Source of the DNA: Verrucomicrobiota bacterium
GTDB lineage: Bacteria; Verrucomicrobiota; Verrucomicrobiia; Opitutales; UBA953
Reading direction: 5' to 3'
Assembly: GCA_015061905.1 (NCBI GenBank)
Contig: SUVQ01000008.1
Coordinates: 25,867 to 89,866, forward strand
Length of the DNA stretch: 64,000 bases
The notes under the pieces are model-generated. The model had not been told where the DNA came from. It made no database searches and saw nothing but the letters and a program-made list of their open reading frames with translations. Position numbers and translations under genes: made by a program. Position 1 is the first letter of the stretch; every line of letters begins with the position of its first letter. Positions 35,764-62,038 of this stretch are shown piece by piece.

Positions 35764-35917
35764 CGTTCTATTGCGCCGCGGGAGCGTCGGGGAGCGAATG
35801 CGTTCCCGTCGCGGCGCGGTTTTTTTTATTCTGTTACCCGGGGCGGCGACTCGCTACGCTCGCTTGCCCCGGGCTATTTTCTTTCGCCCCGTTTCGGCTT
35901 GTTTTTACCTTAAAAAA
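35764..35917. repeat. ~154-bp REP-like multi-hairpin element, copy 2
   Basis: Aligns end to end with 32236-32389, both ending cttgtttttaccttaaaaaaa. Confidence 0.9.
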
Positions 35918-36329
35918 ACAGGCGGGACGCCTGTTCTCCTTTAAATAGCGGGTTGCTCCTCCGGTGAAAAAATCAAAAGAAAAACAAATTTCCGTGCGGG
36001 TCCGTGTTTTCCGTGGTTCATAAAAAAAACTCTGCGTTTCTCTACGTGTTCTGCGAGAGATTTTTTGTTTTTCTTCCGAACGCCCTCACCGCTGCGCTAC
36101 GCTTGCGGTCCCCTCCCTCTTACTAAGAGGGAGAGCTTTTTTTTTTGTCCGAAATGTAATTTATTTTTATATACACATTTCCGCGGCTGATTTTTTTTTC
36201 AAAAAAATACGTTCCGGCATAAAGTCTCTTGCGTTCTCTTCGTTTTACGTTTTAATCAATGCGGTAGCCCGAGGATGCGCATTGCTCCGACGGTGAAAAT
36301 TTTCTATTTCAATCGATTTACCAAAATAT

Positions 36330-39300
36330 ATGGCAAAAAAAGCTCCGGCCGAAAAAAGCACGAAATTCGTTTACGAATTCGGCAAAAAGACTGACGGGAA
36401 CGCGCAAATGCGCAATTTACTTGGCGGGAAAGGCGCCAACCTCGCTGAAATGGCGCGCATCGGCTTGCCGGTGCCTCCGGGTTTCACAATCAGCACGGAA
36501 GTCTGCACGTATTATTACGAAAACAAAAAGACTTATCCGAAAACGCTCATGGCGGACGTGCGCGATGCCGTTGCCAACATTGAAAAGCAGCTCGGCAAAA
36601 AATTCGGCGATGCTACCGGGTTCCCGCTGCTTGTTGCCGTGCGTTCCGGTGCCCGCGAGTCGATGCCGGGCATGATGGACACGATTTTGAACCTCGGTTT
36701 GAACGACGAAACCGTTGAGGCTCTTGCCCGCGTTACGAACAACGAGCGTTTTGCTTGGGACTGCTACCGTCGCTTCGTCCAGATGTATGGCGACGTCGTT
36801 CTCGGTGTGCAAAAACTTCCGAACGAAGATCACGAACCGTTTGAAAGCGTTATCGAAGCCGTTAAAACGGAAATGCTCGAAAACCCGAACGCGAGCGATA
36901 CGGAACTCGGCGTTGTCGAACTCCGCGAACTCGTTTTCCGCTTCAAAAAATTAATCAAAGACCGCACGGGAAGTGATTTCCCGACGGATCCGTGGAAGCA
37001 ACTTGAAGGCGCAATCGGTGCGGTTTTCGGCTCGTGGATGAATGAGCGTGCGATTATTTACCGCCAGAAATATCACATTCCGTCCAGCTGGGGCACGGCG
37101 GTCAATGTTCAGTCCATGGTTTTTGGGAACACGGGCGACAAGTCCGGCTCCGGCGTGGCGTTCACGCGCGACCCGGCGAGCGGAGAAAAAGTTTTCTACG
37201 GAGAATTTTTGATGAATGCGCAGGGCGAAGACGTGGTTGCCGGCGTGCGCACGCCCGATCCCGTCGCGCATCTTGCGAGTGTAATGCCTTCCGCGCACAA
37301 GCAGTTGCTCGGCATTTGCAAAACGCTGGAAAATCACTTCCGCGACATGCAGGACTTTGAATTTACGATTGAAGATTCCAAGGTTTTCATGCTTCAAACC
37401 CGCAACGGCAAGCGCACGGGCGTGGCAGCGATTCGTATTGCCTGCGAAATGGTTCGCGAAAAGCTTATTGACTGGAAAACGGCAGTGCGCCGCGTTCCCG
37501 CCGATCAGCTCGACCAGGTTTTGGCTCCCGTGTTTGACCGCAAGGCACTCAAGGGCGCAACGTCTATCGCGCACGGGCTTCCCGCCGGACCGGGTGCTGC
37601 CTCCGGAAAAGTTTATTTCAATGCGGAGCGCGCGGAAGCGGCTGCCGCCAACGGCGAAAAAGTTTTGCTCGTTCGCCTCGAAACCTCGCCGGAAGATTTG
37701 CGCGGCATGATCGCGGCGGAAGGGATTTTGACGGCGCGCGGAGGCGTTTCCTCGCACGCGGCACTTGTTGCCCGCCAAATGGGTAAGGTTTGCGTCAGCG
37801 GCGCGTCTGCAATCGATATCGACTACGCGAACCGCGCGCTTTCCGTCGGCGACGTTTCCGTCAAGGAAGGCGAATGGATGAGTATCGACGGCACGACCGG
37901 AGATGTTTATCTCGGGCAAATCGCCACGGCTCCGAGCGACGTTATTCTCGGTGTCGTTCGCGGGAACGAAGAGGCGAAAAAATCCGCCACTTACAAAAAT
38001 TTCGCTCAGTTGATGGCGTGGTGTAAAAAGGTAACGCGCCTCGGTGTCCGCACGAACGCGGACGCACCGTCGCAAACGGCTGTCGCGGTTGCTTTCGGCG
38101 CGCAGGGGATCGGTCTTACCCGCACGGAACACATGTTCTTCGAGGGCGATCGTATCGACTCCGTGCGCGAGATGATTCTCGCGACGGATTTGGAAGGGCG
38201 TCGCACCGCCGTCAACAAGTTGCTTCCGTATCAGCGCGGCGACTTTGAAGGCATTTTCCGTGAACTGAAAGGCTTGCCGGCAACGATTCGCCTGCTCGAC
38301 CCGCCGTTGCACGAATTCCTTCCGCAAACGAAAGAGCAGCAGCTTGACCTTGCGAAAAAGCTCGGCGTTCCCGTCGAACACATTCAGCGTCGCGTAGCCG
38401 AGCTTCATGAATTCAATCCGATGCTCGGGCATCGCGGTTGCCGCCTCGGAATTTCCTATCCGGAAATTACGGAAATGCAGGCGCGCGCGATTTTTGAAGC
38501 GGCGGCAAATTGCATTAAGGAAAAAATTCGCGTTGCTCCGGAAGTGATGATCCCGCTCGTCGGTTTTGCGGCGGAATTTAAAAATCAGGCGGCAGTCGTT
38601 CGCCGCGTCGCCGCCGAAGTCATGGCGGAAAAGAAGGTGAAAATTTCTTACAAGGTCGGCACGATGATTGAAATTCCGCGCGCTTGCGCGACGGCGGACA
38701 AGATTGCCGAAGATGCGGAATTTTTCTCCTTCGGAACGAACGACCTGACGCAAACCTCGCTCGGTATGAGCCGCGACGACTCCGGCTCGTTCCTCGGTGA
38801 TTACACGCGCTTGGAAATCGTGAAGCGCAATCCGTTTGCGTCTATCGACCAGGAAGGCGTCGGCGCGATGATGAAGCTCGGCGTTTCGCTCGGGCGCCAA
38901 TCGCGTCCGGACATCAAGCTTGGTATTTGCGGCGAACACGGCGGCGATCCCGAATCCGTGAAATTCTGCCATCGCATCGGTTTAACCTATGTCAGTTGCT
39001 CTCCTTACCGTGTGCCGACGGCTCGCCTCGCGGCGGCTCAGGCGGCGATTGAGGAGGAAATTTCGTTAACCCAACCCCAAACTAATACTATGGCTACAGC
39101 AAAAACCACGAAGAAACCGGCTGCCAAAGCGGCTCCGGCGAAAAAAGCTCCGGCTAAGAAGGCGGCTCCCGCCAAGAAACCGGCAGCGAAGAAGGCGGCT
39201 CCGGCGAAGAAACCGGCTCCTGCCAAAAAACCGGTTGCCAAAAAGGCTCCTGCCAAAGCGGCTCCGGCGAAGAAAGCTCCGGCTAAGAAAGCGGCTCCCG

Positions 39301-39440
39301 CCAAGAAGCCGGTAGCGAAGAAAGCGGCGCCTGCGAAAAAAGCTCCGGCTAAAAAAGCAGTGGCTGTAAAGAAAGCTCCCGCTAAGGCGGCTCCGGCGAA
39401 AAAGGCTTGCTGCAAAAAATCCTGCGCAAAGAAAAAATAA
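36330..39440 (+). CDS. ppdK: Pyruvate phosphate dikinase with in-frame C-terminal Lys/Ala/Pro-rich histone H1-like extension
   Basis: [53 protein letters not shown]; then ~116 aa of PAKKA repeats from an in-frame ATG at 39090. Confidence 0.93.
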
Positions 39441-39455
39441 CTCTTCGCGCTGAAT

Positions 39456-39493
39456 AAAAAACGGCTTCGGGAACGTTCCCGGAGCCGTTTTTT
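39456..39493. terminator. Bidirectional terminator centred on the palindrome CGGGAACGTTCCCG
   Basis: aaaaaacggcttcgggaac|gttcccggagccgtttttt. Confidence 0.85.
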
Positions 39494-39525
39494 ATTTGAG
39501 AGATAAGAGGCGTTCCCGACCACCG

Positions 39526-39581
39526 GCTCCCAGCTCCCAGCTCCCAGTTACCAGTTCCCAGTTCCCAGTTCCCAGTTCCCG
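39526..39581. repeat. 7-bp tandem repeat (GYTCCCA x8)
   Basis: gctccca x3, gttacca, gttccca x3, gttcccg. Confidence 0.95.
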
Positions 39582-39604
39582 GAACCTCTATTGCAGGGCT
39601 TGCT

Positions 39605-41041
39605 TCAGGCTTTTTTCTTATCCCAAGGAAGTTTTACGTTTACGGGAACGCAATCCCAAACATTGAAGGGGAAAAACATTTTTCCGCGACCGAGAATATT
39701 GTTCGGGTCGAGGGCTTTTTTTACGGCAAGCATCGCGGAAATCTCGCCGGGAGAATGCTGGATTTCGAGAAACGGAGATTTTGCCAAGCCGATTCCGTGT
39801 TCGCCCGTGATGACGCCGTCGAGTGAGACGACGGTTTCCATCACGCGCCTTATTGCCGTTTGCGCGGCTTCGCGTTCCCGTGTCTCGTTGCGGTTAAACA
39901 TCACGTGAACATGCAAATTTCCGTCGGCGGCGTGACCGAAAACCGGAGTCGCCAAGCCGGTTTCTTCGGTGATTCTTCGCAATGTTTTCAAAAGCGGCAC
40001 AAAATTTTTGGCGGGAACGGCGATGTCTTCGTTTAATTTTGAATCCGCAATCAGGAACATGGATTGTGAGCAAATGCGCCGCACTTCCCACAGCGATTCC
40101 GCTTCTTCCGCCTCAGCCGTTTCCCGGAAATCCGTTGCGCGGGAACGCGCCCAGTTGCGCACGCGCTCCGCCTGCGCGGGAACGCTGAGGGCGTCGCCGT
40201 CGACTTCGACCAGCAAGACCGCCGATTTTTTTTCGAAAAAACATTTTCCGCTGTAGCGTTGTGCGCACGAAACGGAAAGTGTATCCAAAAATTCACATAC
40301 AGAGGGAACGATGCGAGCCTTTATCAGCTCCTGCGCCGCGAGCAGGGCCGCTTCGTCGTCGGAAAACGCACACAAAAACGTGTGTTTCGCTTCGGGCTTC
40401 GGAACGAGGCGGAGCGTCGCTTGAGTGATCACGCCGAGCATACCTTCCGAGCCGACCCACAAATCGCGCAGGTTGTAACCGCTCACATACTTTTTTACGG
40501 GAGCTCCCCAGCGCACTTTTTCCCCGGTCGGCAAAAATCCTTCGAGTGCGAGCACATAATCGCGCGTAACGCCGTATTTTGCCGCGTGCAAGCCTCCTGC
40601 GTTCGTCGCGATATTGCCTCCGATTGTGCAGTGTTTCACGCTCGCGGGATCCGGCGGATAAAAAAGCCCGCATTTAGCCGCTTCGTCGTTAATTTTTTGA
40701 GTAATCACGCCCGGCTGGGCGATGGCGATTCCGGCATCGGCGTCGATTTTAAGCTCCGTCCAATGAGCGAGTGAAATCACCCAGCCGCCGCAAACGGGCG
40801 CCGCCGCCCCGGTCGTTCCCGTTCCCGCGCCGCGCACCGTCACGGGAACGTCGTTTTTGTTGGCGAGGCGAAGGGCGGATGCGAGGTCCGATTCATCTTT
40901 CGGGAAAATCACGGCTTCCGGCAAAAAGGAAAGCTTCGTGTTGTCGAACGAGGCGGCGAAGCAGGCTTCGGTGTCCGTGCGCACTGCGTTGTCTCCAAGT
41001 TCTTTTTTTAATATAGCCGTTGCCTCCGTGAATTTCCGCAT
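39605..41041 (-). CDS. FAD-linked oxidase (GlcD/D-lactate dehydrogenase family)
   Basis: RGAGTGTTG, YPPDPAS, GGNIATNAGG, GSEGMLG, GHAADGNLH, TGEHGIG; start MRKF at 41041. Confidence 0.93.
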   Translation of the reverse strand: MRKFTEATAILKKELGDNAVRTDTEACFAASFDNTKLSFLPEAVIFPKDESDLASALRLANKNDVPVTVRGAGTGTTGAAAPVCGGWVISLAHWTELKIDADAGIAIAQPGVITQKINDEAAKCGLFYPPDPASVKHCTIGGNIATNAGGLHAAKYGVTRDYVLALEGFLPTGEKVRWGAPVKKYVSGYNLRDLWVGSEGMLGVITQATLRLVPKPEAKHTFLCAFSDDEAALLAAQELIKARIVPSVCEFLDTLSVSCAQRYSGKCFFEKKSAVLLVEVDGDALSVPAQAERVRNWARSRATDFRETAEAEEAESLWEVRRICSQSMFLIADSKLNEDIAVPAKNFVPLLKTLRRITEETGLATPVFGHAADGNLHVHVMFNRNETREREAAQTAIRRVMETVVSLDGVITGEHGIGLAKSPFLEIQHSPGEISAMLAVKKALDPNNILGRGKMFFPFNVWDCVPVNVKLPWDKKKA

Positions 41042-45876: not shown

Positions 45877-47082
<1,206 letters not shown>

Positions 47083-61333: not shown

Positions 61334-62038
61334 ATGAAAAAATACGAACAAAAACCCCTGAACTACGCCTTGGACGCGCTCGAGCCGAACATGCAGAAGT
61401 GCACGCTCGAATTTCACTACGGAAAGCACCACGCGGCGTATGTTGCGAACCTGAATGCCGCGCTGGAAAAAGCACCGGAGTTTGAAGCACCGGAGTGTCC
61501 GGCACGCTTGATTCACCACTTGCACCACGTTCCCGAAGCGATTCGCACGGCGGTGCGCAACAACGGCGGTGGGCACGTCAACCACGCGTTTTTCTGGAAA
61601 AGCCTTACGCCGAACGGGCAGGGCGCGCCGGTCGGCGAACTCGCAAAGGCGATAGAAAAAGATTTCGGCTCGTTCGATGCTTTCCGCGAACAGTTTGAAG
61701 CGAAAGCGATGTCGCATTTCGGCGCGGGCTGGGCGTGGCTCATTCTGAAAAAAGACGGTTCGCTCGCCGTTTGTTCGACGCCGAATCAGGATAATCCGCT
61801 CATGCCGGAAAGCGTCGTTCCCGGAATTGAGCGCGGACGCCCGATTCTCGCGCTCGACCTTTGGGAGCATTCCTACTATCTGCAGTATCAGAACCGCAAG
61901 GCGGAATACGTTAAATCGTATTGGAATATTGTGGATTGGGAACAAGCGGAAAAGGTTTATCAAAAGGCACTTGAGCACCGCCGCGCGAAGGCGGAGGGCG
62001 GCTCCTGCGGATGCTCCGGAAAAAGCTGCATGATTTAA
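61334..62038 (+). CDS. sodA: Superoxide dismutase, Mn-type signature
   Basis: HYGKHHAAY, NNGGGHVNH, TPNQDNP, DLWEHSYY; Cys-rich tail. Confidence 0.93.
   Translation: MKKYEQKPLNYALDALEPNMQKCTLEFHYGKHHAAYVANLNAALEKAPEFEAPECPARLIHHLHHVPEAIRTAVRNNGGGHVNHAFFWKSLTPNGQGAPVGELAKAIEKDFGSFDAFREQFEAKAMSHFGAGWAWLILKKDGSLAVCSTPNQDNPLMPESVVPGIERGRPILALDLWEHSYYLQYQNRKAEYVKSYWNIVDWEQAEKVYQKALEHRRAKAEGGSCGCSGKSCMI

Follow-up and report, generated by a model that had tools for sequence, protein, structure and literature searches.

In the 64,000-nucleotide stretch of DNA analysed here (the window: contig SUVQ01000008.1, positions 25,867 to 89,866, of assembly GCA_015061905.1 from a Verrucomicrobiota bacterium), the gene for pyruvate, phosphate dikinase (PPDK) runs without a stop codon into a lysine-, alanine- and proline-rich module resembling histone H1. 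The host belongs to a gut genus, identified as Candidatus Spyradosoma (Verrucomicrobiota, Opitutia) by the names of near-identical members of protein clusters, and, judged by the sequences of its members, the in-frame PPDK-H1-like fusion is genuine and genus-wide and goes back to the capture of a free H1-like gene. We consider it probable that the tail acts as a polyanion handle by which PPDK is parked on nucleic acid, with the nucleoid as the likeliest site. The spatial organization of bacterial central metabolism is poorly understood, and, if this reading is true, a tethered glycolytic enzyme that recycles pyrophosphate (PPi) and is the sole carrier of the module in its genome would physically link energy metabolism to chromatin.

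The single fused open reading frame (ORF) occupies positions 36330..39440 on the + strand, including the stop codon TAA at 39438-39440, and encodes 1036 residues (112 kDa, isoelectric point (pI) 9.5). It is composed of the PPDK core (residues 12-908, 36363..39053), a 12-residue linker (39054..39089) and an H1-like module of 116 residues (39090..39437), the first codon of which is an in-frame ATG (39090..39092, Met921), a candidate second initiation site and presumed former start codon. The preliminary description of this DNA had read the junction in the same way, with no stop after the PPDK end, an in-frame ATG at 39090 and 116 residues of PAKKA repeats, and the single continuous ORF bears it out. 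The linker leading to the ATG had, however, been called AT-rich; it is rather C/A-rich and G-poor, with only one G within the 25 nucleotides preceding the ATG. The tail contains 45 alanines, 41 lysines and 18 prolines among its 116 residues (90% Lys+Ala+Pro), has a net charge of +40 and raises the pI from 7.5 for the PPDK core to 9.5 for the full protein. With seven PAKKA and 14 AKK[AP] motifs, it shows the repeated motifs by which PAKKA-type H1-like tails are recognized, and its DNA is built of imperfect tandem repeats with periods of 33 and 129 nucleotides. A conserved Cys-Lys motif (39405..39437) terminates the protein. Downstream of the stop codon lies an intrinsic terminator, a hairpin followed by a U-tract (39452..39497, + strand, -31.9 kcal/mol, z = -7.2), which is the only terminator-like hairpin found 3' of the fused ORF; within 36330-39440, including the segment between the PPDK core and the tail, the + strand yielded no terminator-like site. 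The location of the only strong terminator 3' of the tail supports co-transcription of the core and the tail. No internal sigma-70-type promoter was found in 35900-39700, a weak negative, given that verrucomicrobial promoters may differ. The terminator is directly followed by a tandem repeat of the 7-nucleotide unit TCCCAGT (39528-39580, 7.6 copies, 93% matches). An antisense ORF of 161 codons at 39038..39523 (- strand) mirrors the Lys/Ala/Pro repeat composition and is almost certainly no gene.

Residues 1-908 of the fused protein are a PPDK (EC 2.7.9.1) by each sequence criterion applied. The core contains three Pfam domains above their cut-offs, namely PPDK_N (PF01326, 1.3e-56), PEP-utilizers (PF00391, 2e-18) and PEP-utilizers_C (PF02896, 8.5e-78), and it scores 1279.9 bits with the equivalog model TIGR01828, for which the cut-off is 843.45 (protein residues 12-907, model positions 2-865 of 865). 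It aligns with residues 2-871 of the 873 in the Clostridium symbiosum PPDK (PDB 1KBL). The catalytic-histidine motif, GG(M/V)(T/S)SHAA in the family, is present and aligns with RGGMTSHAAVVAR of the solved enzyme 9PZL, the same span being matched in 1KBL/1DIK, and the GICGEHGG motif bearing the catalytic cysteine is present as well.

The reality of the open junction can be judged from the 19 species-level genomes of the genus that we searched (G000-G018). The junction is complete in 13 of them, and all 13 read from PPDK into the lysine-rich tail without a stop; the other six comprise two fragmented assemblies consistent with the fusion, one genome with a contig ending before the junction, and three lacking PPDK. 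While the PPDK cores are 84-99% identical, the linkers vary in sequence and in length (7-12 residues, followed by tails of 100-140 residues). Among genome loci and metagenome clusters, the methionine resides 12, 13, 16 or 17 residues past the AAQ of the last conserved core motif (...ARLAAAQ), so that the lengths differ by whole codons only. Over the 13 linkers, the PPDK frame is free of stops, whereas the two alternative frames contain 10 and 11, in eight of the 13 species each, counts that are no independent trials because the species compared are phylogenetically related. This is the pattern predicted for a reading frame kept open by selection, and the stop-free frame has persisted through at least four indel events. 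Most of the listed members of the two genus clusters that we looked up among metagenomes are full-length fused ORFs, one exact sequence being found on 29 contigs, and RefSeq holds a 1035-residue protein (WP_427766585.1) named plain “pyruvate, phosphate dikinase”. In one lineage (G001 and three metagenome clusters), the methionine and its surroundings are gone (...IEEAAANAAAKAPAKK...), and the tail is still in frame. Since no other copy of the H1-like module is detectable in the G001 genome, the tail of this lineage can be made only as a fusion.

The preliminary description had cautioned that deleting one base would restore a normal stop and that an indel error might have produced the fusion; comparison with orthologs was among the checks it suggested, and a stop after PPDK in relatives was to refute the fusion. 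The first remark is correct, as a TAA resides in the +1 frame at 39067..39069 (+ strand), so that one extra base near GAAATTTCGTTAA, introduced by sequencing or assembly, could have merged two ordinary genes, and the PPDKs of other genera of the family do end a few residues past AAQAAIEE. We nevertheless regard such an error as extremely improbable. The open junction recurs in 13 independently assembled species with linkers of differing sequence and length, the length differences are whole codons, and full-length fused ORFs make up most of the listed members of the two genus clusters, on many metagenome contigs. The +1 TAA itself is not conserved, several species of the genus having TCAAC or TTATCC at this site. 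As all complete junctions of the genus are open despite their different linkers, none showing the refuting stop, we take the fusion to be real. A programmed frameshift into the +1 TAA was also considered and rejected, for lack of both a canonical slippery site and conservation of the TAA.

The homologs of the module indicate that the tail is derived from a captured stand-alone gene. Genome G008, which belongs to the same genus and lacks PPDK, encodes a stand-alone 102-residue protein (MATPKKPTAKK...KKACGCKKACAKK) ending with ACGCKKACAKK, and the gene is equipped with a separate terminator and with an upstream region of its own, which is AT-rich. A stand-alone protein (MAVKK...KKACAKKCACKK) ending with ACAKKCACKK is also found in G026, a genome belonging to another family of the order, where it is unlinked to the tail-less PPDK. 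The terminal Cys-Lys motif is thus common to both free proteins and to the fusions, every one of which carries two or three cysteines within the last 14 residues. In G020, from another genus of the family, the 5' untranslated region (5'UTR) of the stand-alone gene, caaccccaacccataaataccATG, resembles the fusion linker, taacccaaccccaaactaatactATG, as does that of the G008 gene. PPDK in other genera of the family ends with ...AAIEEKRAAKRK* and has nothing lysine-rich downstream, and a tree of 190 PPDK cores places the genus as one tailed clade nested among tail-less relatives. In the simplest history, a small H1-like gene, together with the last ~25 nucleotides of its leader and its ATG, would have come to lie behind ppdK. 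Upon loss of the ppdK stop, the ribosome would read from an intact PPDK through the linker, which would be the translated former 5'UTR of the captured gene, into the polycationic tail, and the free protein would have contributed both MAT(A)K at the N-terminus of the module and the terminal Cys-Lys motif. No separate lysine-rich ORF was found within 1.5 kb downstream of PPDK in 74 diverse PPDK loci, which suggests that adjacency without fusion is not common. We rejected the possibility that the G008 gene is the remnant of a PPDK deletion, because it resides elsewhere: the genes flanking it upstream have adjacent counterparts at G000 C10:319621-322493, where no H1-like gene is present, and its downstream neighbor maps to C12.

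A genome-wide scan for Lys/Ala/Pro-rich proteins in the host genome (2.08 Mb, 98% complete) detected the fused gene as the only one carrying the H1-like module; the one other protein found was unrelated and RHH-like. A small RHH-like protein with a K/A/P-rich C-terminal tail is encoded at G000 C5:178352-178897 (+), L102 2131-3018 and L104 2887-3522, and in G020 the stand-alone H1-like gene is immediately preceded by the gene of its homologue. The search with the PPDK query also matched the lysine-rich N-terminus of RpoD, the primary sigma factor (G000 C16:59342-61708 (-); G008 L107 2810-4972), which has a Lys/Ala/Pro/Ser-rich N-terminal extension of about 150 residues (MAEKKKNKATPEKKLPAKKASKSVPVKK...).

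The likeness to chlamydial Hc1/Hc2, pointed out in the preliminary description, is borne out for composition and fails for family membership. The tail reaches neither the Pfam HC2 cut-off (PF07382, 30.1 vs 40 bits) nor that of NCBIfam Hc2 (NF038052, 24.3 vs 135 bits) or of the Burkholderia-type H1-like family (NF038053, 32.3 vs 80 bits). Scoring below all of these curated cut-offs, it is a member of none of them, and its sequence places it in nothing narrower than the loosely defined functional class of PAKKA-type tails. A single-sequence AlphaFold2 (AF2) model of residues 850-1036 contained no secondary structure in the tail, but its mean pLDDT was 52 and about 50 throughout, including the folded part, so that it says little on disorder. 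The terminal Cys-Lys motif may, speculatively, bind metal or cross-link tails. Cysteine-rich protein ends also occur elsewhere, at window positions 45877-47025 (-) and 61334-62038 (+) and at G000 C10:231629-232219, C12:4129-4719 and C11:25633-27042, with examples in GAPDH (...DGGCCCCK), SodA (...GGSCGCSGKSCMI) and others (...SGCSCGGDCGGDCDCGGDCDCGCK, ...HGCKGDGSCGHCTCGRH). At least three cysteines within the last 15 residues were counted in 16 of 1554 ORFs, as compared with eight when internal windows were drawn at random. Such cysteine-rich ends may be a lineage-wide habit, perhaps for metal binding, to which the Cys-Lys end of the PPDK tail would belong.

The retained ATG at 39090 raises the question of a second product. 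Shine-Dalgarno sequences are not enriched in the host genome (15.5% of starts vs 13.5% background), and real starts are located in an A/T-rich, G-poor and weakly folded RNA context, with a mean minimum free energy (MFE) of -6.8 kcal/mol in the -30..+30 window, compared with -14.3 kcal/mol for internal ATGs. ATG 39090 has an MFE of -1.4 kcal/mol in this window and 4% G upstream, values matched by just 0.1% of the 1039 internal in-frame ATGs used as controls, and its context is stronger than that of most annotated starts and similar to that of PPDK's own start. Each of the 12 species with the methionine retains the start-like context (-1.4 to -9.3 kcal/mol, G 0-16%), and it is lost together with the methionine in the Met-less lineage (L011; -18.9 kcal/mol, G 32%). 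We therefore lean slightly towards the view that ATG 39090 still initiates a free 11.4-kDa H1-like protein in most species. Of the earlier proposal of an internal start, the start-like, G-poor and unstructured context is observed, whereas the product itself is deduced from this context. If it is made, a small nucleoid protein may be escaping annotation pipelines.

Lysine-rich tails on PPDK are not confined to this genus. Using the last 187 residues of the fused protein as the query against a large protein collection, we found more than 100 PPDK clusters of 930-1130 residues with Lys/Ala(/Pro) tails of 30-247 residues, from sources including Treponema (among them T. rectale), Anaerorhabdus furcosa, Fibrobacteres, Ignavibacteria, Planctomycetota and other Verrucomicrobia. 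At least 14 changes of the long-tail state fall on the 190-core PPDK tree, a count that indicates recurrence and not a rate, as the set was enriched for tailed sequences. Such recurrence across phyla makes it probable that PPDK in particular benefits from a tail of this kind. In several independent clades, a methionine is located exactly at the onset of the lysine-rich run (RMAEKK, KMAVTSAK, SMSDVAKK, TNTMAKKAAKK), which hints that whole-gene capture may be a common route to tailed PPDKs. A second PPDK clade of other Verrucomicrobia (P0048, P0069, P0023 and relatives) has a non-basic linker of about 35 residues ending with ...NKQRTNTM and followed by AKKAAKK repeats; its TNTM junction resembles the QTNTM of Spyradosoma, suggesting a similar but separate gene capture. 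A PPDK from a Planctomycetaceae metagenome-assembled genome (L080, JAISJZ010000357.1) ends with ...GVVKTQCQCQCGCKK, a Cys-Lys end without Lys/Ala repeats that is reminiscent of the Spyradosoma motif. Tailed PPDKs of other phyla are named plain PPDK throughout the databases, and our literature search found no paper on PPDK with histone-like or lysine-rich tails. With proteins of 1000-1100 residues carrying the plain name, an architecture recurring in at least six phyla has gone unremarked.

The metabolic context fits the tethering proposal loosely. Pyruvate kinase (PF00224) was found in none of the 19 genomes of the genus, although the control search was positive in 14 of 14 genomes, and the host genome contains three PFK-family genes and a membrane pyrophosphatase (H+-PPase). 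From this combination, PPDK is probably the step from phosphoenolpyruvate (PEP) to pyruvate in a PPi-using glycolysis. Nucleic-acid polymerases are a major source of PPi. A family I PPase is absent from the host genome, and we rejected PPDK as the sole PPi sink in view of the H+-PPase and a DHHA2-domain protein. Genomes G008, G009 and G014 lack both PPDK and pyruvate kinase (PF00224).

By analogy with other PAKKA-tailed proteins, the tail most likely holds PPDK on DNA. It would serve as a PAKKA-type handle that grips polyanions non-specifically. Since the solved bacterial PPDK structures are dimers, each enzyme molecule would have two tails, with which it could bridge DNA. Tethering would place the reaction PEP + AMP + PPi -> pyruvate + ATP + inorganic phosphate (Pi) beside the polymerases releasing PPi. 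The PAKKA motifs of MLDS are required for DNA binding and for attaching lipid droplets to the chromosome (PMC5504291), and H1-like tails tether polyhydroxybutyrate (PHB) granules, in PhaM and PhaF, and polyphosphate granules, in AlgP, to the nucleoid (PMC13052382, PMC11894788). The host genome also has one HU gene, so the H1-like module would not be its sole nucleoid protein. Several points weigh against the proposal. The tail could also bind targets other than DNA, such as RNA, ribosomes or anionic lipids. G008, G009 and G014 lack PPDK, with the free H1-like gene either kept or absent, so that the fusion is obligatory for neither function. Besides the membrane PPase, the DHHA2-domain protein is maybe a family II PPase, and the ATG may owe its start-like context simply to descent from the old 5'UTR rather than to selection. 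The relatedness of the compared species and the uninformative AF2 model, both mentioned above, belong here as well.

Two other explanations accept the continuous ORF. The fusion protein might be a tolerated by-product, with the PPDK activity and a free H1-like protein, made from the internal ATG or released by proteolysis in the linker, being what matters, and the tail having no role on PPDK. This would account for the ATG and its start-like context being kept in 12 of the 13 species, for stand-alone homologues working alone in G008 and G026, and for the poor conservation of the linker sequence. We find it unlikely, because the frame and the stop-free state of the linker have been kept through at least four indel events, the Met-less G001 lineage retains its tail with no other detectable copy of the module, and lysine-rich tails arose repeatedly on PPDK in other phyla, many of them without a methionine. 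Rather improbable, too, in our estimate is that the tail grips some polyanion outside the chromosome (ribosomes or RNA, anionic membrane lipids, polyphosphate) or drives a condensate. Disordered lysine-rich tails bind any polyanion, and AMP and PPi are also set free when tRNAs are charged for translation; the association of AlgP with polyphosphate granules (PMC11894788) points the same way. Polyphosphate is, however, an unlikely partner, as neither PPK1 nor PPK2 was found in the 98%-complete host genome, and the PAKKA tails put to the test bind DNA (PMC5504291). The descent of the module from a small free protein of the nucleoid-protein type likewise argues against a target outside the chromosome. 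Parking of PPDK on the nucleoid by a captured H1-like tail is the reading we prefer.

A wider version of this reading can be formulated, which we put forward with considerable doubt. PPDK would repeatedly have been parked on nucleic acid by polycationic H1-like modules, which different phyla would have acquired on a dozen occasions or more, in some cases through capture of a whole histone-like gene, the benefit being the regeneration of ATP from AMP + PPi at the sites where these are released by polymerases and the translation machinery. A single ORF would then give rise to two chromatin proteins in Spyradosoma, a 224-kDa two-tailed DNA-bridging dimer and a free 11-kDa H1-like protein, with Cys-Lys ends cross-linking in a metal- or redox-dependent manner as in protamines.

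Irrespective of this wider version, the evolutionary record of the Spyradosoma fusion is unusually legible, since one can still see the donor gene, its 5'UTR in the form of a linker, the start codon that was kept and an unfused sister species. The architecture can be described as an H1-like tether on a new partner, apparently made by whole-gene capture, the tether itself being plausible by analogy. Compared with canonical bacterial PPDK (C. symbiosum, 1KBL/1DIK), the Spyradosoma enzyme has the same three domains and catalytic histidine and cysteine motifs in a full-length match over residues 12-908. However, the solved PPDKs stop two residues past AAQAA, whereas the Spyradosoma PPDK runs 128 residues further, with a net charge of +39. 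The tailed PPDKs of other phyla share with it the enzyme, the terminus and the kind of tail, several also having a methionine at the onset of the lysine run, but their repeats and linkers are unrelated to those of Spyradosoma and their clades are separate on the PPDK tree. The Cys-Lys end is seen in none of them, except for the Planctomycetaceae PPDK that ends with CQCQCGCKK and lacks the repeats. With the chlamydial Hc2 and Burkholderia-type H1-like proteins, the tail has in common a Lys/Ala-rich, repetitive composition and weak profile matches below the cut-offs (E 6e-7 and 1e-7 for the tail alone). The likeness to Hc2 is compositional, the host being neither chlamydial nor known to have a developmental cycle.

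Close parallels are also the PAKKA-tailed proteins, i.e., MLDS of Rhodococcus, PhaM, PhaF, AlgP and the mycobacterial Hlp/HupB, which follow the same plan of a functional N-terminal part and a Lys/Ala/Pro repeat tail. The tails of these proteins bind DNA non-specifically, and the Spyradosoma tail resembles them in sequence. Whereas the partner in these precedents is a granule or droplet protein or HU, in Spyradosoma it is a soluble enzyme of central metabolism, and its tail, unlike theirs, appears to be a whole captured gene that has retained its start codon and its Cys-Lys end.

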